This document shows positions 2,590-12,394 of a stretch of 13,193 bases of DNA, piece after piece. The first letter of the stretch is position 1. The number at the start of each line of letters is the position of its first letter. The translations under genes and the position numbers were made by a program. The DNA is from a virus. Taxonomy: Duplodnaviria > Heunggongvirae > Uroviricota > Caudoviricetes. A model generated the notes under the pieces. The model was not told where the DNA came from. It ran no database searches and saw nothing but the letters and a program-made list of their open reading frames with translations. Where the stretch lies: the IMG/VR virus record IMGVR_UViG_2737471845_000021; one strand, given 5' to 3'.

Positions 2590-3408
2590 TCAATGGTGTT
2601 TTAATAACGGATAAGTAAAAAACAACAAATGGCAAAGATTTAAACCAAAATGAAAAAGGGTGGATACCCACACCCGACCACTCCACAACCACGCCAAACC
2701 ATAAATAAAACCAGCAAGCGTAGAAAAGAGAACCAGTAATAAACCACCAGATAAATGATAAAGACCAAAAAGACATGAAGATATAAACAATGCAGTTAAT
2801 GGATGTATAATAAATGACAGACGCTGCTGAAGATATCCTCTAAAAAAAGCCTCTTCAGCAAGTGAAACAAAAAATAGGTTACTCAATATAAATTGAGGTA
2901 ACCAATCAGGAAAATGCAACTCTGGTTTCAACCCACCAACAAAAACACCTGACATTAAAAGTAAAGGAACAGAGAGTAAAAGCATACCCCAAAAACTGTA
3001 AGGCACATTTCGTCTGCCCCCATCGTTGAATAAAGAAGGAAATCCAAGCAATAACAAAAATGGTATTAGTGCCTTGTCAAAATTAAAATACATAATGTAT
3101 GGAGTACTCAGTGGGCCTGCAACTACAGAATTTAAAATCAATGGATTATGAAACCCAGGCCAAATGTGAATAAGCAATCCTGCAGATGACAGAACAAAAC
3201 CAATCTCAATGATTATTCTACACAAATACTTATGTGGCCATTTTATTTTCAATAAAAAACACACACTTACTGTTATGAGAAGAAAAATCGCCTGCCACTT
3301 AATCACACCATTGAGCCCCCCCAAAACAATAGCAATTAACAACAATAATGAAGACAACAACCTATACGAACTTAAGCTAACCAATGACAGAGCCAGAATA
3401 CCCCACAT
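2590..3408 (-). CDS. CPBP family intramembrane metalloprotease (CAAX protease / Abi domain), polytopic membrane protein; cargo gene in AT-rich island
   Basis: 272-aa ORF, ATG at 3408 with AAGGAGG 5 nt upstream. Hydrophobic N-terminal half. All three CPBP motifs in order: EEAFFRGY (EExxxR), FGLYH (FxxxH), HFGLN (HxxxN). Local GC content is much lower than the flanking phage genes. Confidence 0.85.
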   Translation of the reverse strand: MWGILALSLVSLSSYRLLSSLLLLIAIVLGGLNGVIKWQAIFLLITVSVCFLLKIKWPHKYLCRIIIEIGFVLSSAGLLIHIWPGFHNPLILNSVVAGPLSTPYIMYFNFDKALIPFLLLLGFPSLFNDGGRRNVPYSFWGMLLLSVPLLLMSGVFVGGLKPELHFPDWLPQFILSNLFFVSLAEEAFFRGYLQQRLSFIIHPLTALFISSCLFGLYHLSGGLLLVLFSTLAGFIYGLAWLWSGRVWVSTLFHFGLNLCHLLFFTYPLLKHH

Positions 3409-3530: not shown

Positions 3531-3899
3531 CTAATAGACATCCATTTCTAATGAAACGTTTAGTATCATTAGCATTCCTTCAATAACCCCTTCAGCCTTC
3601 TTAAGTTTTTTACCAATATAACCATCAGAACAACCATGTTTTTTTGCCAGAGACATAAATGTCATACCCAAAACGTAATAATCCACGAGCAGATCATGCA
3701 AGTCACTGTTGTTCTTTTTCAAGCGAGCCATACACCCACAAATGATCATCGCGTCATCGTCACAACATTGCGGGCGGGATTTTACTTTTGAATGGATTAG
3801 TCCTTTAAATCCTGCAGCAATAGACGACCAGGTGACATCCTCATGATTATTTGCCACCCATGCACCCCAACGTTCAAGAACCATTTGAATATCACGCAT
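3531..3899 (-). CDS. Phage antitermination protein Q (phage-82 / QuuD-like family)
   Basis: ATG at 3899 preceded by GGAGAAAGG; the track ORF begins 5 codons earlier at a TTG. N-terminus [14 protein letters not shown] and a Cys-rich [16 protein letters not shown] region resemble DLP12 QuuD-type Q proteins. Position is last gene before the late promoter. Confidence 0.75.
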
Positions 3900-3916
3900 C
3901 ACCTTTCTCCACAAAA

Positions 3917-4906
3917 TCAGGCCAGCACACCAATTGCCAGCGCGCGATCGATAAAACGAAATATCAGCTCCAGTTGGGAGCCATACTTCTCTTCAAATGC
4001 CACGGTATCCATATGCAGCTCGTCGTGATGCTTTCTGCACAAAGGCAACACAAAGAGGTCATGCGCTTTAGTCCCCATTCCCCCCTGACCGTGGCCTATA
4101 AGATGGTGGGGATCATCAGCAGGCTTTCCACAACATGCACACGGCTGTGTCTTAACCCAGCGCGTGTACTTTTCGTGAACCCAGCGGCGACGTTTTGGGC
4201 GTAACATAAAAGACTCTGGCGACTCCGGATGCACTTTCAGCGTCAGCACCTTTTTCGCTTTATCCTGGATGATGCTGGTGGCAGGAACCGAAGGCACAAG
4301 GTCACTTTCCCGGGTGGCAGACGGCACAACAGGCTTCGGTAATCTCAGTACCATACGGGCTGCACTTTCAGGTAAGGCATCCGCCAGGTCATTACGAACC
4401 AGCCACCAGCACAGTTCCGGCATTGTCACAACGTGACTATCATCAAAACCGAGATCCCGACGCACAACAGACAACACCCAGCGGGCACAGTTATCCGTTG
4501 CCATTGATTCCAGCCGTTCCGTGAACTGATCGCGCAGCTGGTTATCGCAGTGCCAGCACAGACGGATTGCGCCAGGCGCGTGTCGCATTGTGGTCATGTT
4601 CTCGCTGTGCCAGTCGGAATGAGGCCACTGGCAGCCTTTTTCACGAAGTAACCAGCTTTCAAGACATTCCACGCCACCAGCACGACGGATCACTGCCACA
4701 TTGCGGAACACGGCTCGAACGGCAGGATCATCCGCCAGCGGTTGTGATGCCGCCGGAACGGCACCACTGGCAAAAGATGAATAACGTTCCGGCTCAGGCT
4801 CCAGCAGGACACGCCCCTGCATAAACAGGGGCATCAGCTCTGAACCTGGTCTGAACAATACGATCCCCATACGTGGGGCAATTTCAGGGGTCAGTAGTGC
4901 TCTCAA
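3917..4906 (-). CDS. DUF968 (YdfU-like) prophage protein with C-terminal HNH-like Cys/His motif
   Basis: 329-codon ORF. C-terminus [43 protein letters not shown]. First codon is TTG with GAGG 7 nt upstream; an alternative ATG lies at 4870, so the start is uncertain. Confidence 0.6.
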
Positions 4907-4915
4907 CGTAGAACC

Positions 4916-5431
4916 TCACAGCGCAATCTGTTTCAGTTTCTGTACCGCCTTCCCCATATCCGCCATAGCATCAACAAACTCATCAAATTTACGACTTGCC
5001 ATTCCATACGCCTGGAGGATTTCCAGTTTCAGAGGATCCAGTTGCTTTTTAATTTCCGCACGATCATTAAATTTCTTCTCTGCTTCTTCCGCAGCCCTGA
5101 TCAGCTCCTCAGCGTGCCTGCGTAATTCATCCGGAGTAACGGTCTTTTTAATCACAACGGGTTCCTCTGTTTTTACTGGTATTTCACTATTTACTACCTG
5201 ATGTCCAAATTTAGGATGATGTAACGTTGTAGTTCTTCCATCATTCGCAACGACCAGAAGTCCACTGTCGCGGATAATGCCAATGAGTATCTCCTTATCC
5301 CTTTTATTCAGCAGACTGTACGCCTGCACTTTCTGTGATATCTGGGTCAGTGTTGCGCCTTCCGGCATTCGTTCAACAAAACGTTTAACCCTGGATAAAA
5401 CTGGCTGCAGATGAGGTGGTGTAATTCTCAT
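4916..5431 (-). CDS. Hypothetical phage protein (possible winged-helix N-terminus, Lys/Glu-rich helical C-terminus)
   Basis: ATG at 5431 with GGAGG 8 nt upstream (track ORF starts at an upstream TTG). 171 aa, tightly packed between KilA-N and DUF968. No family recognised. Confidence 0.5.
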   Translation of the reverse strand: MRITPPHLQPVLSRVKRFVERMPEGATLTQISQKVQAYSLLNKRDKEILIGIIRDSGLLVVANDGRTTTLHHPKFGHQVVNSEIPVKTEEPVVIKKTVTPDELRRHAEELIRAAEEAEKKFNDRAEIKKQLDPLKLEILQAYGMASRKFDEFVDAMADMGKAVQKLKQIAL

Positions 5432-5446
5432 GCTCCACGCCTCCAA

Positions 5447-6262
5447 TCAGTGAACAGTATCGAGCAGCTTTAACAGCTCAGGGAATCGGGATTCGAAGAA
5501 ATGCGGCTGCGTCTCGCGCGGATTTGCAGGACTGGTGATGTTCTTGCCGAACATGCAGCCTTTCGCCGTCAACGACCAGAATTTTTTTATGTTGTTAATC
5601 GCGGTACGGCTGTATCGTTCGCGTTGTTCAACGATCCCCAGCTTCGCCATCTGGTGATATGCCTGATTAGCCGTCAGGCGGATGCCATACTGCTTCAGCA
5701 GTGCACTCAGCGACAGCGTAGGGCGGCTTGAACCATCTGGAGCATCAGCAGGTGCATCAATGGCATAGATCGGCATAAGTTCAGGAAGCCCAGCTACCTT
5801 TGATAATTTCTTGTATGCACCAAGTTTCGAGGAGTTTGACAGATTTAGAGTCTTTGCTGCTGATTCAAGCAGAATGACCCCGGATTTAATTTTATCGGAT
5901 GTGGTTTCTTCTGGTGATGAATTATGAAGCGCATCAAAAGTACGTATCACTTTTAAGCTGAATGCCGGGCTGATCCACATTGCATATGCATAGACCAGCT
6001 CTTTACAGACATACGTCCCACCATTGCGCCCCTGAATGGTGATGACAGGAATACTACGGGAATCTCCCGTAGTTTCTTCTTCCAGTAATTCCACAAGAGC
6101 CTTCGTTTCAGGACGACGCATAAACTCGTGAACTTCCAGCGAACGGGAGGAGCGATTCTCACCAGCGGCAAGAAGAGCAGCTTTCTGAAGGTCGTTAAGA
6201 CAGTAGTTAGATTCAAAGTACTGGCGCACAGAAACGCCATCAATTACAAGCAACTGATTCAT
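5447..6262 (-). CDS. KilA-N domain protein (putative antirepressor)
   Basis: ATG at 6262 with GGAGAAA 4 nt upstream (track ORF extends 32 codons further). Region MNQLLVIDGVSVRQYF...ITIQGRNGGTYVCKELVYAYAMWISPAFSLKVIRTFDAL matches KilA-N domain features. A LexA box lies upstream. Confidence 0.7.
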   Translation of the reverse strand: MNQLLVIDGVSVRQYFESNYCLNDLQKAALLAAGENRSSRSLEVHEFMRRPETKALVELLEEETTGDSRSIPVITIQGRNGGTYVCKELVYAYAMWISPAFSLKVIRTFDALHNSSPEETTSDKIKSGVILLESAAKTLNLSNSSKLGAYKKLSKVAGLPELMPIYAIDAPADAPDGSSRPTLSLSALLKQYGIRLTANQAYHQMAKLGIVEQRERYSRTAINNIKKFWSLTAKGCMFGKNITSPANPRETQPHFFESRFPELLKLLDTVH

Positions 6263-6348
6263 TGGTTTCTCCACAAATTTCGGGACTGCACTCCCTTTTC
6301 GTTGATGCAAGATGAACTTACTGCGATTTTTAATAGTTATCAAGGATA

Positions 6349-6368
6349 TACTGTTCATAAATACAGTA
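6349..6368. promoter_or_regulatory. LexA (SOS) box upstream of the KilA-N gene
   Basis: TACTGTTCATAAATACAGTA: exact CTGT-N8-ACAG with AT-rich spacer and flanking TA/TA, in the 151-bp gap between rusA and the KilA-N gene. A candidate promoter lies immediately downstream on the minus strand (-35 TTGATA at 6338..6343, -10 TAAGTT at 6315..6320). Confidence 0.6.
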
Positions 6369-6413
6369 TCCTTAACGAGGTAATACCCAAATTTAGGGTG
6401 TTGCTCAATTCCG

Positions 6414-6809
6414 TTACCGGGTTGCTAATTTGCAACTCACTTTTTCGTACTTACTGATTGTGATCTCGACCTTCCCTTCCGGGATAACCGGTCCCCACTC
6501 CACCAACATTCTTTTCACCTGGCTGTCGTCTTCCCACACACCCGCGTGGGTCAGGGCGTCAAACAGCGCCTTGTTATAGTTGTCCAGATCGCGGATCCGG
6601 TTATCTGGAGGAAACAACACGATCTCCACTGAAGCAGGTGCCGACGTTGGTTTTGGCAGACGACGTAACTGCTCAACTATTGCTGCACACGCCGCGCTCT
6701 GGAATTTGCGCCCCGTTGCGCTTATCAGGCTCTTACCAGCAAACACCCCTTTGTTGGGGTGTCGCCAGTACGTGTTCACGCTGGGCGGAAAAGGCAGTAT
6801 TAGCTTCAT
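6414..6809 (-). CDS. rusA: RusA-family Holliday junction resolvase
   Basis: 131 aa with the RusA motifs LPFPPSVNTYWRH and RDLDNYNKALFDALTHAGVWEDDSQV. Start ATG overlaps the upstream stop (ATGA). Confidence 0.85.
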   Translation of the reverse strand: MKLILPFPPSVNTYWRHPNKGVFAGKSLISATGRKFQSAACAAIVEQLRRLPKPTSAPASVEIVLFPPDNRIRDLDNYNKALFDALTHAGVWEDDSQVKRMLVEWGPVIPEGKVEITISKYEKVSCKLATR

Positions 6810-7132
6810 ACTTTCAGGCCCCTCTCATGTAACCAGTGGGCTGCACGCAGCCTGGCGTTTGCCTCACCGGCAAGCAGTGCGCGGATAATCCCGACCGCCT
6901 CGCTGTCGTCGTCCTTCACCGCCGTATGAAGAGTGATACCCCGGGCCACGCCACGCTTTATCGTGATGACGCCTTTTTTCTCCAGTGCGCGAAGATGCTC
7001 CACCGCTGCATTCACCGAACGGTATCCCAGCATGGTTGCCACCTCCTGATTGGTTGGAGGAAAGCCACGCTCTTTCTGATAAGAAATCAGCATATCCAGC
7101 ACCTGCTGCTGGCATTGAGTTAACGTCATCAT
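6806..7132 (-). CDS. LexA-like DNA-binding domain protein without the S24 peptidase domain
   Basis: ATG at 7132 overlaps the upstream TAA (TAATG). About 108 aa. LTQCQQQVLDMLISYQKERGFPPTNQEVATMLGYRSVNAAVEHLRALEKKGVITIKRGVARGITL aligns motif-for-motif with the LexA N-terminal winged-helix domain. No Ala-Gly cleavage site or GDSM serine region follows. Confidence 0.65.
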   Translation of the reverse strand: MMTLTQCQQQVLDMLISYQKERGFPPTNQEVATMLGYRSVNAAVEHLRALEKKGVITIKRGVARGITLHTAVKDDDSEAVGIIRALLAGEANARLRAAHWLHERGLKV

Positions 7133-7620
7133 TACGCCCCCACGTAATTCCCTGACAGATACCACTCTTCACCCGATGCAGCGCGCTTGCTGCTTTTCCG
7201 TAAGCACCGCTCACGACGCGCCAGAAAATTGTTTCGTTCTGGCTGGGAGTGGCTTTCACGGAATGCCGCCATCCACACGGTTGCAGCACGACGGTATAAG
7301 CCCCTCGACTCCAGTTCTTCAGCCTGGCGGGTCAGGCACAAAATCACCCGGGGATCGTTAGTGCCGACATAGAAATTGCGCACAGGTCTGGTTTCACGAA
7401 CTGGTTGTGGTTCCGGCTCCTGCGCTCTCTCAGTCAGGCGCGGGAAATGTCTGCGTGTATCTCCTTCACAACGGTGAGCCACACGCCCACTCTGACGTAA
7501 CTTGCTTGCTGACTGCAGAACGCGCTGCCGTGAGTAACCTGCAAAAGCCTCCGCAATGTCTCCGGAAGTACAGCCCGGATGGGCTTCAATGAATTTCTGA
7601 ACGTCATTCAAAAGACTCAT
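7132..7620 (-). CDS. PerC-family-like transcriptional regulator
   Basis: ATG at 7620, 2 nt after the upstream stop, preceded by a G-run. C-terminal segment LESRGLYRRAATVWMAAF resembles the PerC/Pch signature (GLWRRAAxxW). Family call is from motif recall only. Confidence 0.45.
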   Translation of the reverse strand: MSLLNDVQKFIEAHPGCTSGDIAEAFAGYSRQRVLQSASKLRQSGRVAHRCEGDTRRHFPRLTERAQEPEPQPVRETRPVRNFYVGTNDPRVILCLTRQAEELESRGLYRRAATVWMAAFRESHSQPERNNFLARRERCLRKSSKRAASGEEWYLSGNYVGA

Positions 7621-7622
7621 GA

Positions 7623-8441
7623 TCACCCCCTGAATCCTGCCGGGATCTGGCTGTAGTCCACATTGTCGTAACTGGCTTTGAAGTACGGGTCCTCGCGTCT
7701 GGCTGCAGATACCGCAGGAACTTCCCAGGATTCTTCGAAATGACGATCCGGACCAAAGAACGTGACAGCCTGTTTCACAAATTGTGTGCCGCTGTTACCC
7801 ATCGCAGATACCCAGCCCGCGTAGCGTTTCACACCTTCCAGCATGGTTTCGGGGTTTACCCCCTCATTCAAACGGGCTTTCCAGGCTTTGAAGGCTGCAG
7901 ATTTTGAATTGCCACCAGCACGTTTGGGATATGCCAGCCATGCCTGCTCAAACTCCGGAGAGTATTCCGGTCGGTTTGAACGAACTCGCACGGACTCATC
8001 AACTGATGCACCAACAGCTATTGGTTCATTGACTGGTTCATTGACTGGTTCAAAAGAGTGACTGGTTCTGGGTGAATCTCCTGCACTACCCCCTGGTGCA
8101 ACTCCTGCACTACCTGGTGAATTTGCTGCACCAGATAGTGAATTATTTGCACTACCCCCTGGTGAATCTCCTGCACCATCCAGATGAAGGAGATAGATAT
8201 TACTTGAGTTACCTTTTTCACCTTTCCGGGTGACTTTTTTTACCAGCCCGGACTCACAAAGGGCCGCAATATGATTCATCACAGAACGTTTGCTAATCTC
8301 GCACTGGTCAGCAATATGCTGGTAGCTGGGCCAGCACTCACCCTGATCGCTGGCATTATCAGCCAGCTTGATCAGAACCAGTTTTCGCAATGGATTACCC
8401 ACTCGAATTTTCATCGCTTTAACCATCAGCTCCATACTCAT
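7623..8441 (-). CDS. Replication initiator / replisome organiser (lambda O-like; N-terminal HTH, C-terminal Phg_2220_C-like domain)
   Basis: ATG at 8441 with GGAGGTG 6 nt upstream. Internal low-complexity repeats (PVNEPVNEP, GDSPGG) are encoded by the iteron array. C-terminal FEQAWLAYPKRAGGNSKSAAFKAWKARL resembles the conserved phage C-terminus of replisome organisers. Confidence 0.7.
   Translation of the reverse strand: MSMELMVKAMKIRVGNPLRKLVLIKLADNASDQGECWPSYQHIADQCEISKRSVMNHIAALCESGLVKKVTRKGEKGNSSNIYLLHLDGAGDSPGGSANNSLSGAANSPGSAGVAPGGSAGDSPRTSHSFEPVNEPVNEPIAVGASVDESVRVRSNRPEYSPEFEQAWLAYPKRAGGNSKSAAFKAWKARLNEGVNPETMLEGVKRYAGWVSAMGNSGTQFVKQAVTFFGPDRHFEESWEVPAVSAARREDPYFKASYDNVDYSQIPAGFRG
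8010..8180. repeat. Iteron-like direct repeats inside the initiator gene (candidate replication origin)
   Basis: ttcattgactgg occurs twice in tandem (8013..8036); cctggtgaatctcctgcac and ctcctgcactacc recur several times over 8058..8175. Arrangement is analogous to lambda ori inside gene O. Confidence 0.55.
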
Positions 8442-8658: not shown

Positions 8659-9204
8659 TCATTTGCCCCCCCTTACCTCTGAAGGGTTCAGTGACAGATT
8701 TATGAGACTGGCCAGTACCGCCGCGTCGTTGATGCGGTCATACAGACTTATAGCCAGCGGGGATTCGGCTTTTGCCAACATGGGATAAAGCTGCTGCAGC
8801 CAGACTTTGTGGATTACCGACAAGTGGGAGTAAAGCACGCTGGCGTTATGTGCGGCATCGCTCAGCGTGGATGGCCTTGAAAGCTGCTTTTCCATCTGGT
8901 TAAAGGCATTGATGTATGCCTCTTTGAACTGGGCAGCACGTTTCCCCGTGAAACCCATAGCAAGAAACGCAAAGCCGTCGCGGGTTATTTGATAGCAAGG
9001 TAGTTTGCGGCCTGTGCAATCGGTGTAATCACTCACCGAAAAATTGCGGGCAGTGAATGATGCGGAACATTCAAGCGTGCGGATCTTTTTCAGTACATCG
9101 TCATGACGTTTGGAGAAGAAGTTGGCAACAGCTAGGGATGAAGTAACAGCCTGACCATCAACGATGGCAATTTCAGGTTGAGTGAGGGTTGGGATCGTAG
9201 CCAT
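8659..9204 (-). CDS. Rha-family phage regulatory protein
   Basis: ATG at 9204 with AGAGG upstream. MATIPTLTQPEIAIVDGQAVTSSLAVANFFSKRHDDVLKKIRTL...ITRDGFAFLAMGFTGKRAAQFKEAYINAFNQME matches the Rha N-terminal domain. The track ORF continues 133 codons upstream through the repeat module; that extension is judged non-coding. Confidence 0.7.
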   Translation of the reverse strand: MATIPTLTQPEIAIVDGQAVTSSLAVANFFSKRHDDVLKKIRTLECSASFTARNFSVSDYTDCTGRKLPCYQITRDGFAFLAMGFTGKRAAQFKEAYINAFNQMEKQLSRPSTLSDAAHNASVLYSHLSVIHKVWLQQLYPMLAKAESPLAISLYDRINDAAVLASLINLSLNPSEVRGGK

Positions 9205-9474
9205 GATGGCAGCCTCTTTGGTGATTTTTAATAACTCACCACCAAGGCTTTCCACGACCTTATTGGTGGTGAGACGTACAGGGGTGGAAATACCGGTCAC
9301 CAAAGAACCCGGCCCAACCGAAGTTGGCCCTGCACGCCCCACCATAATTTGGGCGTAATGCTGCTCATGACACAAAAAAACCGCAAGAGCGCGGTTGTGC
9401 GCTTTGGTGAATTCCGGGTTTCCACGCCCGGCACCCGCTTTATAAGGTGCCTGAACAGTGTAACCTCCCGGAAT
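9184..9474. repeat. Leader module D, copy 1 (about 290 bp), upstream of and overlapping the rha start
   Basis: Homologous to 9809..10096 with conserved blocks: cccaccataatttggg, cccgctttataaggtgcctgaacagtgtaac, gtagccatgatggcagcctc. Hairpins differ in sequence between copies but still pair. Confidence 0.75.
9374..9396 (-). terminator. Intrinsic terminator inside leader module copy 1
   Basis: Minus strand AACCGC-GCUCUU-GCGGUU followed by UUUUU. A predicted promoter lies about 75 nt upstream on the same strand (-35 TTGACC at plus 9480..9485, -10 TACACT at plus 9457..9462). Confidence 0.5.
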
Positions 9475-9534
9475 TTCACGGTCAACCAAGCTAACACGTA
9501 GAACATGCCCTGCAGGTGTGGTGTACCACTGCCC
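9475..9534. repeat. Core repeat, copy 1 (60 bp)
   Basis: Near-identical to 8546..8606. Confidence 0.8.
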
Positions 9535-9595
9535 AACTGTAGGAATTGATGTTTTTTTACGCTGAAGAAAACGGCAAATATTGAGGATCAACGGA

Positions 9596-9829
9596 TTAAG
9601 CATGACGATGCCCTCCGCTGATATTCAGGAGACGGTGAATATGAAAATTAGCCTTATCCGCCAGACGAATACGTTCAGCCTGCAAGTTAAGAAGGGTTTC
9701 TACCAGAACTTCATGCGCCTGCGGATCCGAAAGAGTTACCTTGCGCAGAGCACGTAGTGCAGTTGTTACATAACTGAGTTTATGTAAGTCTTCATCATTC
9801 AGACGAGAGAGGGCTGGGACAGTAGCCAT
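9596..9829 (-). CDS. Hypothetical 77-aa protein; first 8 codons homologous to the rha start
   Basis: ATG at 9829 in the same conserved context as the rha start (gtagccatgatggcagcctc). N-terminus MATVPAL compares with Rha MATIPTL. Function unknown. The track ORF extends 201 codons upstream through leader module copy 2. Confidence 0.4.
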   Translation of the reverse strand: MATVPALSRLNDEDLHKLSYVTTALRALRKVTLSDPQAHEVLVETLLNLQAERIRLADKANFHIHRLLNISGGHRHA

Positions 9830-10096
9830 GATGGCAGCCTCCGTATGCAATGGATAACTTCCACCACCGGAAACGCCAATTTCGCTGGTGGTGAACTGAG
9901 CAGGGTTGGCGTAACCGGCGCATACGGAAACCGGCGCACCTTTCGGTGCCCCCACCCAGCCCACCATAATTTGGGTATAGCTGAGTTGTAGCAACAAAAA
10001 AGACGCTAACGCGCCAATTGTCGCCGTATGCAATTCCAGGACGCCAATCCCGACACCCGCTTTATAAGGTGCCTGAACAGTGTAACGTCCCGGAAT
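9809..10096. repeat. Leader module D, copy 2
   Basis: See copy 1. Lacks the 60-bp core but has its own promoter-like element (-35 TTGATT at plus 10102..10107, 17-nt spacer, -10 TACACT at plus 10079..10084). Confidence 0.75.
9996..10015 (-). terminator. Intrinsic terminator inside leader module copy 2
   Basis: Minus strand GGCGC-GUUA-GCGUC followed by UUUUUU. Different stem sequence from copy 1 at the equivalent position, but still a hairpin plus U-tract. Confidence 0.45.
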
Positions 10097-10428
10097 GGCA
10101 GAATCAATGTGCTGGTGGTCCTTCACACTCAACAAAATCACGCCTGAATTTCCACAAAGGACTAAAGCACTCATGCGGGTAGTCTTTGCGAAGATAGATA
10201 ACGCGCTGTGTTTCTGGCTCCCAACGAATAACATGAACATAAAGTCCTCTTCCGTCACGAAACCAGCGGTTAAGTTCCTGCACAACTCGCCCCCCACAGT
10301 CAGGTAAAGTTCTCTGTGGTTACTTACAGCCAGGTGATTTGGTAATCTGCATTCATGCCGTAACAACAGGTGTTCAGCGACGCTGACCACCAACTGTTGC
10401 GACAAACGGTTATTTGCCGTTAAACTGT

Positions 10429-10980
10429 TCATGCGTTAGTTTCTCCACGGACACAAAACGCCACGACGCCCGGAGCTGCACACTCGCGGGCGTCACTCTT
10501 TTCTGGAGCGCAGAAAATTTTGTAGACCAGCGCCGCATGTTCCTGGAGCTTCGAAATCGACAGATACAACTCATCATTAATTGCTGTCTGTTCATGTGGC
10601 TCCACTAGCCCATCTTCGATTGCCGAACGAATCTGCTTTGAGTAACTCCCGATCTGTTCAATGACTTCCAGTAGACGTTGGTTGATATCAGCGTTCTCTA
10701 CTTCCTCAATTTCAGGAAGTGATACAAACACCCCACCAGCAGACTGTGCGACAGCATCCGCAATGTGATGAGTACTAGCCGCACGCTGTAAAACCATTGC
10801 CCATCCCAACGGAAAAAACTGATCACCATCGGCACGAAGGCGGTTGAATAAAGCGTTCTCTGTTACATCCAGCCACTCAGCAGCTTCAGCGTAACCACCT
10901 GGCAATGCCGCGATAGTTTTTCTGACAGCTTTCACATACCAGTCAGGTTGTTTTTCCACTTTCCAGTGATGCTTACCCAC
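10429..10980 (-). CDS. CII-like / YdaT-family early regulatory protein
   Basis: GTG start with AGGAGG 7 nt upstream. 183 aa. Sits immediately downstream of the Cro/YdaS-like gene, as ydaT follows ydaS in Rac-type prophages. Family call rests on position and recall, not a search. Confidence 0.55.
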   Translation of the reverse strand: MGKHHWKVEKQPDWYVKAVRKTIAALPGGYAEAAEWLDVTENALFNRLRADGDQFFPLGWAMVLQRAASTHHIADAVAQSAGGVFVSLPEIEEVENADINQRLLEVIEQIGSYSKQIRSAIEDGLVEPHEQTAINDELYLSISKLQEHAALVYKIFCAPEKSDARECAAPGVVAFCVRGETNA

Positions 10981-11314: not shown

Positions 11315-11989
11315 ATGAAAACAATCCATGACATCCGGCGGTCTAACGCCAGAAAACTGAGAGATGGTGTTGGCGGAAATTCATCCTTTGCCACCATGAT
11401 TGATCGCGAGCCTACCCAGACCAGCAGGTTTATGGGGGATGGCGCTACTAAAAATATCGGTGACAGCATGGCACGGCACATCGAAAAATGTTTCGACCTG
11501 CCTGTCGGATGGCTTGATCAAGAACACCAGACAACGAACATCACAAAAAAACCTGATGTTTCAATCACTAATAAAAAAATAACGTTAGTCCCTGTCATAT
11601 CATGGGTACAGGCCGGAGCATGGAAAGAAGTTGGCTATTCTGAGGTTGATTTGAGCACAACAGAAACGTATCCCTGCCCTGTACCCTGTGGCGAAATGAC
11701 TTATATATTGAGGGTGATTGGTGATTCAATGATTGATGAGTACCGTCCGGGAGACATGATTTTTGTCGATCCAGAAGTACCAGCCTGCCACGGCGATGAC
11801 GTTATTGCATTGATGCACGATACAGGTGAAACCACCTTCAAAAGGTTGATAGAAGACGGGACACAGCGTTATCTCAAAGCATTAAACCCCAACTGGCCTG
11901 AGCCTTACATTAAGATAAACGGTAATTGCTCTATCATTGGTACAGTTATTTTCTCAGGAAAACCAAGAAGATACAAAATTAAAGCCTGA
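11315..11989 (+). CDS. cI: CI-type prophage repressor (N-terminal HTH, C-terminal S24 LexA-like autopeptidase)
   Basis: 224 aa. C-terminal domain is closely lambda-CI-like: VIGDSM (Ser nucleophile), TFKRL (Lys), LNPNWPEPYIKINGNCSIIGTVIFS. Candidate Ala-Gly cleavage site in VQAGAW. Confidence 0.9.
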   Translation: MKTIHDIRRSNARKLRDGVGGNSSFATMIDREPTQTSRFMGDGATKNIGDSMARHIEKCFDLPVGWLDQEHQTTNITKKPDVSITNKKITLVPVISWVQAGAWKEVGYSEVDLSTTETYPCPVPCGEMTYILRVIGDSMIDEYRPGDMIFVDPEVPACHGDDVIALMHDTGETTFKRLIEDGTQRYLKALNPNWPEPYIKINGNCSIIGTVIFSGKPRRYKIKA

Positions 11990-12170: not shown

Positions 12171-12184
12171 AACTGGATTTATAA

Positions 12185-12394
12185 TCAATTATTTTCTTCA
12201 TAAATGTTTTGTAATGTTTTTATGAGATTTGGTATTTCTTTTATGGGAAAAGAATATATTGGACTTTCGATAATTTTATCAGATTCAAATGGTGGTTGTT
12301 TGCAGGACAGTTGAACTATAACTGAATTATGATCTTTAACTGGCACACAGTACCAACCACATACATCAAAAACAGGAGTATTTTGATTATCCAT
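12185..12394 (-). CDS. Hypothetical small protein (69 aa) in AT-rich context; possible cargo gene
   Basis: ATG at 12394 with GAGGA 5 nt upstream (track ORF starts at an upstream TTG). Followed by a strong terminator. Low GC content. No family recognised. Confidence 0.4.
   Translation of the reverse strand: MDNQNTPVFDVCGWYCVPVKDHNSVIVQLSCKQPPFESDKIIESPIYSFPIKEIPNLIKTLQNIYEENN

Follow-up and report, generated by a model that had tools for sequence, protein, structure and literature searches.

A predicted SOS box and a LexA paralog without a protease domain are close but evolutionarily separable neighbors in the early operon of a lambdoid prophage

Phage genes under the control of host LexA have precedent (PMC3121763). 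For instance, dinI, an antirepressor gene and irsA form an operon in the Gifsy prophages that is transcribed from a LexA-controlled promoter with a terminator in front of it (Lemire et al., 2011; PMC3121763). Moreover, a truncated LexA homolog encoded by a phage has been described in the Bacillus thuringiensis tectivirus GIL01, where the protein, gp6, is an activator of the late P3 promoter (Fornelos et al., 2018; PMC6182141). Here we analyzed a stretch of 13,193 nucleotides (nt) of the IMG/VR virus record IMGVR_UViG_2737471845_000021 (hereafter, the window). It covers the region from immunity to Q in a lambdoid Escherichia coli prophage of the SfIV/SfV type, to which BLAST searches against phage and E. 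coli collections assign positions 5400–7700. The window carries a predicted operator for host LexA (SOS box; 6349–6368) in front of a gene for a KilA-N domain protein of 271 amino acids (aa; 5447–6262, minus strand) and, farther upstream, a gene for a 108-aa paralog of the LexA N-terminal domain (6806–7132, minus strand), hereafter the LexA-like protein. The two elements are close neighbors, and they are evolutionarily separable. The joint explanation that we consider best, and hold tentatively, is that the box would give host LexA control over the KilA-N gene and that the paralog would re-occupy SOS boxes.

The LexA-like protein matches the Pfam family LexA_DNA_bind (PF01726) over the whole model (positions 1–65 of 65; E-value 8e-19) and the N-terminal domain of E. 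coli LexA (1lea) with an E-value of 6e-16. Its AlphaFold model (pLDDT 82) comprises a winged helix-turn-helix (wHTH; residues 1–68), an acidic linker and two helices (75–87 and 93–102). The model superposes on LexA–DNA structures (3jso, Foldseek) with a root-mean-square deviation (rmsd) of 1.0 Å, the identity over the N-terminal 68 residues is 51%, and the recognition helix is nearly the same as that of LexA (SVNAAVEHLRAL versus SPNAAEEHLKAL). No match to Peptidase_S24 (PF00717) was found in the protein, which has neither Ser119 nor Lys156; the alignment to LexA stops near residue 90, and the score against the lexA equivalog TIGR00498 falls below its cutoff (69.8 versus 110.95 bits), covering only model positions 1–91 of 203. 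An earlier reading of this DNA, made from the sequence only, had described a LexA N-terminal domain that lacks the S24 cleavage module, and these profile searches bear that description out. The protein qualifies as a phage truncated LexA homolog of the GIL01 gp6 type, with an extra conserved tail of 40 aa.

The DNA contacts of LexA helix III are made by S39, N41, A42, E44 and E45 (PMC3091678). Across 148 unique sequences of the LexA-like family (LexA numbering), three of these five contacts are invariant or nearly so, namely S39 and N41 (both 148/148) and A42 (145/148); E45 is kept in 111 of the 148 (75%), and E44 in none of them, A, V or F standing in its place. Outside the contacts, H46 and K53 are present in all 148 sequences and R64 and G65 in 147 each, and R28 is lost. 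The resemblance to the LexA recognition helix claimed in the sequence-only reading extends, across the family, to these three contacts, and the reading head of the family appears to be under strong constraint, yet not identical to that of LexA.

A profile search of 1.8 billion representatives recovered full-length relatives at 40–48% identity, 105–135 aa long and with the same two-helix tail, so that the tail, predicted as two helices, is conserved down to 40% identity. The sources of these relatives are Klebsiella, Enterobacter, Cedecea, Kosakonia, Citrobacter and Salmonella. Its members are annotated merely as ‘LexA family transcriptional regulator’ or ‘DNA-binding protein’, and no experimental work on the family was found in the searchable literature. 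A scan of genome contigs with the Klebsiella-type protein returned mostly true LexA genes of Vibrionaceae, together with three prophage loci. Matches in a fold search for the tail were dominated by the wHTH, other wHTH regulators differing by more than 8 Å rmsd. We also considered the tail as a mimic of the LexA cleavage site and rejected this: LAGE aligns with AAGE of LexA, but relatives have ERE, TRK, SGG, DDQ or AEE, and the region is predicted to be helical.

The SOS box reads TACTGTTCATAAATACAGTA on the plus strand and TACTGTATTTATGAACAGTA on the gene strand, and lies 87 nt 5′ of the KilA-N start codon (6262). Corroborating the sequence-only reading, which had noticed the same 20-mer, 17 of its 20 positions agree with the E. 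coli SOS-box consensus, and it has the CTGT-N8-ACAG palindrome, TA flanks and AT-rich spacer that characterize gammaproteobacterial boxes. Against a LexA weight matrix built from 28 E. coli boxes, the scores of which are approximate, it reaches 22.0 bits, compared with a median of 19.4 for the 28 boxes themselves, 14.65 for the next best site in the window and a mean maximum of 9.5 for 200 shuffles. The window contains two copies of CTGT-N8-ACAG where 0.17 would be expected, and for TACTGT-N8-ACAGTA, in which 12 bases are fixed, the expectation is about 8e-4 copies per 13.2 kb. The CTGT-N8-ACAG core is retained in E. coli variants of the site. By these measures the sequence is predicted to be a strong LexA-type operator.

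Two other sites in the window were set apart from it. The second CTGT-N8-ACAG (10314–10329) scores 7 bits, has a GC-rich spacer, lies inside an open reading frame (ORF) and is taken as a chance occurrence; it is kept in SfV and Stx2a_1447, but merely through homology of the region. The second-best matrix site (12171–12190, AACTGGATTTATAATCAATT, 14.7 bits) lies to the left of cI, has a degenerate right half and scores within reach of the shuffles.

The box is located in the 151-bp intergenic region between rusA and the KilA-N gene (6263–6413, minus strand), whose sequence is conserved to 97% in relatives from SfIV and E. coli and which holds two weak sigma-70 candidates. The better one (−35 TTGATA, 6343–6338; 17-nt spacer; −10 TAAGTT, 6320–6315) is directly downstream of the box, so that the box is just upstream of its −35 element; the alternative (−35 TTGAGC, 6408–6403; 17-nt spacer; −10 TATTAC, 6385–6380) would place the box at about +4 to +24. 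A scan for terminators found none on the minus strand between rusA and the box, and the KilA-N gene is therefore probably also transcribed by read-through from the early operon. On the plus strand, a terminator-like hairpin with a T-run (6419–6438), antisense to the 3′ end of rusA and about 50 nt from the box, could end a short antisense transcript, a feature not above chance for the region.

RefSeq uses the same KilA-N start, 6262, and a GGAG ribosome-binding site precedes this ATG. A longer ORF would start at 6358, with an ATG inside the box, but an 11-nt indel breaks it in SfIV and most E. coli relatives, and 6262 is therefore the real start. The protein matches Pfam KilA-N (PF04383; E-value 1.6e-15; 57.3 bits against a gathering cutoff of 23.8) and PHROG 129. 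Its model (AF2, pLDDT 74) shows the N-terminal KilA-N domain, a helical linker, a disordered stretch and a small alpha/beta C-terminal domain. The protein has two DNA-binding-like domains. The C-terminal 147 aa have no Pfam match even at E ≤ 5, and no ANT or KilAC domain among them; the C-terminal half has no NCBIfam match, and the model has no fold match in the PDB at E < 0.1. The sequence-only reading had called the protein an antirepressor like Tum of coliphage 186 or those of Gifsy-type prophages, but only its KilA-N domain is detectable, and Pfam, NCBIfam and fold searches returned no homology to Tum, the Gifsy antirepressors (GfoA family) or the ANT/KilAC domain. One related locus has a protein with Rha and ANT domains in the same slot, between rusA and DUF968, so the slot hosts proteins of the Bro/KilA/Ant type; for the protein of the window, the name antirepressor is conjecture. 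Apparent RusA::KilA-N fusions of 401–405 aa are singletons, probably artifacts of read-through or frameshift, and were not used.

The box and the LexA-like gene do stand in one operon, as the sequence-only reading held, and a single gene, rusA (6414–6809, minus strand), separates the LexA-like gene from the KilA-N gene, which puts the former two genes upstream rather than three. The general pairing of the two does not hold: 2233 of 5426 complete E. coli genomes encode the LexA-like protein, at 2855 places, whereas the intergenic region with the box occurs in 186. Eighty viral contigs encoding KilA-N relatives tell the same story from the other side: an SOS box lies upstream of the KilA-N gene at all 42 loci with the allele of at least 95% identity and at none of the 38 with alleles of 65–80%. 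SfV and Stx2a_1447 have the LexA-like gene and rusA, followed by a 19-nt gap and another KilA-N N-terminal allele, and no box is found there. The box occurs solely with the one allele and therefore belongs to a single mosaic cassette, made up of the gap and the 5′ end of the KilA-N gene, and not to the LexA-like gene. The pairing of box and LexA-like gene is a coincidence of mosaic neighbors in one phage lineage.

At the level of the family the picture is broader, and the recurrence of its members among SOS boxes, dinI and umuD′-like genes makes an SOS-related role plausible. A survey of 1.5 Mb from related loci showed enrichment of CTGT/ACAG palindromes at a single spacing, the N8 of genuine SOS boxes, a pattern that would fit the absence of a separate operator class and is not proof of binding. 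An apparent enrichment of CTGT-N15-ACAG (the same as CTGTT-N13-AACAG) was discarded as coding sequence, contributed by one clade at the 3′ terminus of its LexA-like gene. Strong SOS-type boxes (24–26 bits, e.g., CACTGTTTATATATACAGTA) were also seen at L018:203, L026:430, L032:499, L063:218, L064:218 and L095:1121; that of L032, the only one of the six loci inspected, falls within the reading frame for a CI-like S24 repressor, where it encodes ...KSTVYINSG....

In a clade from Klebsiella and Enterobacter (L099–L125 and L132), the LexA-like gene comes third in a unit headed by an SOS box and dinI. The unit runs, in order, through a strong terminator, a promoter with the SOS box, a dinI-like gene, a 101-aa ORF, the LexA-like gene, a 67-aa ORF, DUF968 and Q (for example, L108:3209–4527). 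The promoter (−35 TTGACC, −10 TATACT) overlaps the box, which scores 17.5–29 bits (mostly 25–27). Judged from this layout, the LexA-like gene of the clade would come under SOS induction too, in keeping with a feedback design. Its DinI-like and UmuD′-like neighbors are further SOS paralogs, the latter sometimes with an SOS box of its own: at L121:2837–3206, such an additional box precedes a 109-aa gene that is UmuD′/HumD-like by eye, from a GFPSPAKDY motif only. We considered whether the LexA-like family is the IrsA of Gifsy and rejected this: STM1020 of Gifsy-2 is a DUF1367 protein (E-value 4e-98) that matches the LexA-like protein in BLASTP with an E-value of 2.2, no cluster name mentions IrsA, and the literature gave no support.

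Under the joint explanation that we prefer, host LexA would sit on the box in the lysogen and repress the promoter there; upon DNA damage LexA would cleave itself, and the KilA-N gene would gain SOS-inducible expression independent of CI. The LexA-like gene lies in the CI-repressed early operon, so the paralog would be produced, and would act, only after induction or infection and not in the lysogen. RecA would be unable to inactivate it, because the protease and dimerization domain is replaced by the two-helix tail. Dimerizing through this tail, the paralog could re-occupy LexA-type operators once host LexA is gone, at the phage's own box and at SOS promoters of the host or of rival prophages, and the outcome would be SOS shut-off or pulse-limiting feedback. 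The broader proposal, that the family is a RecA-proof LexA mimic that re-represses SOS promoters (those of the host, its own and those of rival-prophage antirepressors) and whose reading head some lineages tether to RusA, is a possibility that we regard with some doubt; it would apply to lambdoid prophages of some 40% of the E. coli genomes and to relatives in Klebsiella, Enterobacter, Citrobacter and Salmonella.

Several observations weigh against this explanation. About 93% of the LexA-like copies in E. coli have no adjacent SOS box of this kind. None of 95 loci in two other clades has an SOS box within 1.5 kb; five of the 95 carry a box roughly 3.5 kb upstream, apparently inside cI, and in a few it is farther off. 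No convincing sigma-70 promoter could be placed at the box of the window, where a generic scan found none at 9/12. E44 is never kept in the family and R28 is lost, and the specificity or affinity of binding may therefore differ from that of LexA. An isolated LexA N-terminal domain binds operators weakly, and dimerization of the paralog through its tail is conjecture. Finally, the partnership with rusA and DUF968 described below points, by gene order and fusions, to recombination rather than transcription.

This partnership underlies a serious rival, the main one to the SOS-box mimic: that the LexA-like protein binds DNA as an accessory or targeting subunit of a phage recombination module formed with RusA, and perhaps with DUF968/HNH, its tail docking onto RusA, and is not in the first place a transcription factor. 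We hold this to be possible, though rather unlikely. When the genes within 4 kb were counted at 132 loci of the wider family, DUF968/HNH was the most constant neighbor (127/132), and RusA was present at 103. In 29 of 30 entries sampled across the E. coli ranking, rusA is annotated beside the LexA-like gene, the thirtieth being a partial match that covers 22% of the gene. The two reading frames of the window overlap (the rusA start and the LexA-like stop share ATGA), as do the LexA-like start and the stop before it (TAATG), an arrangement that implies translational coupling. Moreover, a search with a Klebsiella-type member revealed in-frame fusions of 202–212 aa in which the LexA wHTH (residues 1–68) is joined through a short linker to a complete RusA with an intact catalytic motif. 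These fusions (P0404–P0429; L262:5001–5627) fall into many clusters, including ones of 37, 27 and 18 members, and occur in Klebsiella-type prophages in the same syntenic slot as the separate genes. Such associations, the tightest of the LexA-like gene, were missed by the sequence-only reading. Their force is reduced by the 29 of the 132 loci that have the LexA-like gene and no nearby rusA, and by rusA without the LexA-like gene at 11 of the 80 loci from KilA-N viral contigs; DLP12 is a further such case. The base readers S39, N41 and A42 would also be needless in a helper that binds junctions non-specifically, and the two-helix tail, replaced in the fusions, could equally have been a dimerization module made redundant by dimeric RusA.

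Alternatively, the LexA-like protein could be a transcription factor of the GIL01 gp6 type that has drifted to an operator of its own, where it would activate or repress a phage promoter, perhaps one close to Q or the late region, and that leaves SOS boxes alone. The sole characterized phage truncated LexA homolog acts in this way (PMC6182141), the losses of E44 and R28 are joined by variability of E45 in some clades, and the synteny directly upstream of Q is conserved. We nevertheless think this unlikely: no other palindrome or spacing is enriched in the 1.5 Mb surveyed, where CTGTT-N13-AACAG proved to be LexA-like coding sequence, late transcription is already served by the Q antiterminator, and three of the five LexA contacts vary little or not at all.

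Less probable still is the mechanism put forward in the sequence-only reading, in which the LexA-like protein acts in the lysogen, either by keeping the KilA-N ‘antirepressor’ repressed during DNA damage or by poisoning LexA as a heterodimer partner. In its favor, 440 nt separate the box from the paralog within one operon, and the family has preserved the reading head. Repression at the lysogen stage is difficult, however, because the gene is embedded in a CI-repressed operon, with overlapping stops and starts on both sides, and no promoter-like site turned up on the minus strand of 5900–7400, the sole stretch scanned. LexA dimerizes through its C-terminal (S24) domain, and a dominant-negative heterodimer is unlikely because that domain is absent here. 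The box accompanies only about 7% of the E. coli copies of the gene, and its KilA-N protein has no antirepressor homology; together these points make the mechanism improbable. Least of all do we expect the SOS box to be a coincidence or a relic without regulatory role, since the want of a strong sigma-70 promoter placeable on it, and its confinement to one recently spread allele, so that conservation says little, are set against 12 fixed palindromic bases with an AT-rich spacer, a score above the median of the boxes that built the matrix, and an intergenic position at a suitable distance from a start codon.

Positions 5400–7700 share 96–97% identity with Shigella phage SfIV and E. coli phage PhiR49_1 by BLAST, and parts of this region are shared with Stx2a and Stx2c phages. 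The early-right operon, on the minus strand, begins with a cro-like gene, a cII-like gene (CP76), two tandem isrK+C4 RNA modules and a Rha-type gene. These are followed by an O-like replication gene (7623–8441, minus strand), a gene for a PerC-like protein of the YfdN type (7132–7626, minus strand; Pfam PerC 7.7e-9, with a yfdN annotation in E. coli relatives), which is directly 5′ of the LexA-like gene and translationally coupled to it, the LexA-like gene, rusA, the 151-bp gap and the KilA-N gene. The rusA product, a Holliday-junction resolvase (Pfam RusA 6.5e-15), has its D-L-D...K...DD motif readable in the translation of the window. At the end of the operon are a 176-aa gene without an assigned family, a gene for a DUF968/HNH-type nuclease (3917–4906, minus strand; Pfam DUF968 1e-78 plus HNHc_6) and the antiterminator gene Q (3531–3914, minus strand; Pfam Phage_antitermQ 1e-52). 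The C-terminal HNH region of the DUF968 protein has a weak match (E-value 0.056) to the family of the P1 Ref RecA-dependent nuclease. A CI-type repressor with an S24 autopeptidase domain is encoded on the plus strand (11315–11989; Pfam Peptidase_S24 1.3e-26), in agreement with the cleavable-type CI that the sequence-only reading had recognized.

Additional features were observed on the minus strand. The tandem isrK and C4 antisense-RNA modules (Rfam, 59–84 bits) are located at 9262–9450 and 9884–10072, 5′ of the Rha-type gene, and the Pfam Phage_ASH matches of the ORFs at 9596–10432 and 8659–9603 coincide exactly, strand included, with these RNA genes; the match to ‘Ash’ may therefore be a translated RNA locus, or may reflect dual coding as in c4-icd-ant of P1. 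Downstream of Q, genes for tRNA-Arg(tct) and tRNA-Met(cat) are found at 1438–1592, as in many lambdoid and Stx-type phages. Between these and Q, an ORF at 2590–3408 encodes a 272-aa Rce1-like/CPBP intramembrane protease, in a position that is the cargo slot of Stx phages.

Should the paralog bind SOS boxes, phages would have, in a very common prophage gene, a means to turn the host SOS response back off during lytic growth, and one that could also pulse-limit their own SOS-induced genes. Such an activity would bear on prophage competition in polylysogens, on antibiotic-driven SOS mutagenesis and, the LexA-like gene being present in Stx2a and Stx2c phages, on the induction of Stx phages. If the protein is instead a partner of RusA, it would make RusA the first Holliday-junction resolvase with an attached domain that reads sequence, and a RusA-tethered head that reads SOS boxes would link their recognition to recombination.

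LexA-controlled accessory genes of phages were already known, as was a truncated phage LexA homolog (GIL01), and the SOS box before the KilA-N gene is one more case of an SOS-controlled accessory gene in the nin region. As in the Gifsy dinI-gfoA/gftA-irsA operon, tum of 186 and antC of N15 (PMC3121763), the box lies in the nin region, outside the immunity region. Unlike in those systems, the gene behind it encodes a 271-aa KilA-N protein without similarity to GfoA, Tum or ANT, and no insulating terminator is present; moreover, the known LexA-controlled antirepressors have a non-cleavable cognate repressor, whereas the CI of the window carries Peptidase_S24. The Klebsiella-type clade reproduces the Gifsy layout exactly, with terminator, promoter, box, dinI and small ORF alike and the LexA-like gene in the irsA slot. 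With P1 KilA and the Bro-N/KilA-N family the KilA-N protein has the N-terminal domain in common, but its C-terminal half fits no described family.

The LexA-like protein itself has the same fold as E. coli LexA (1lea, 3jso) and a near-identical recognition helix, but unlike LexA it has no S24 protease and dimerization domain, E44 is replaced and R28 lost, and the Ala-Gly is not conserved in the family. It resembles GIL01 gp6 in being phage-encoded, in consisting essentially of the LexA wHTH without S24 and in occurring with host LexA boxes in the same phage. However, gp6 recognizes its own palindrome (GaCACAn nTGTGaC) and uses K38, whereas the protein of the window keeps S39, N41, A42 and E45; also unlike gp6, it has a two-helix tail, belongs to lambdoid phages of Gram-negative bacteria and is encoded beside rusA and DUF968, with some relatives fused to RusA. 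The LexA-like family is thus a distinct variant of the truncated phage LexA homolog, with a tail of its own, a home in the nin regions of Gram-negative lambdoid phages, and linkage and fusion to RusA.

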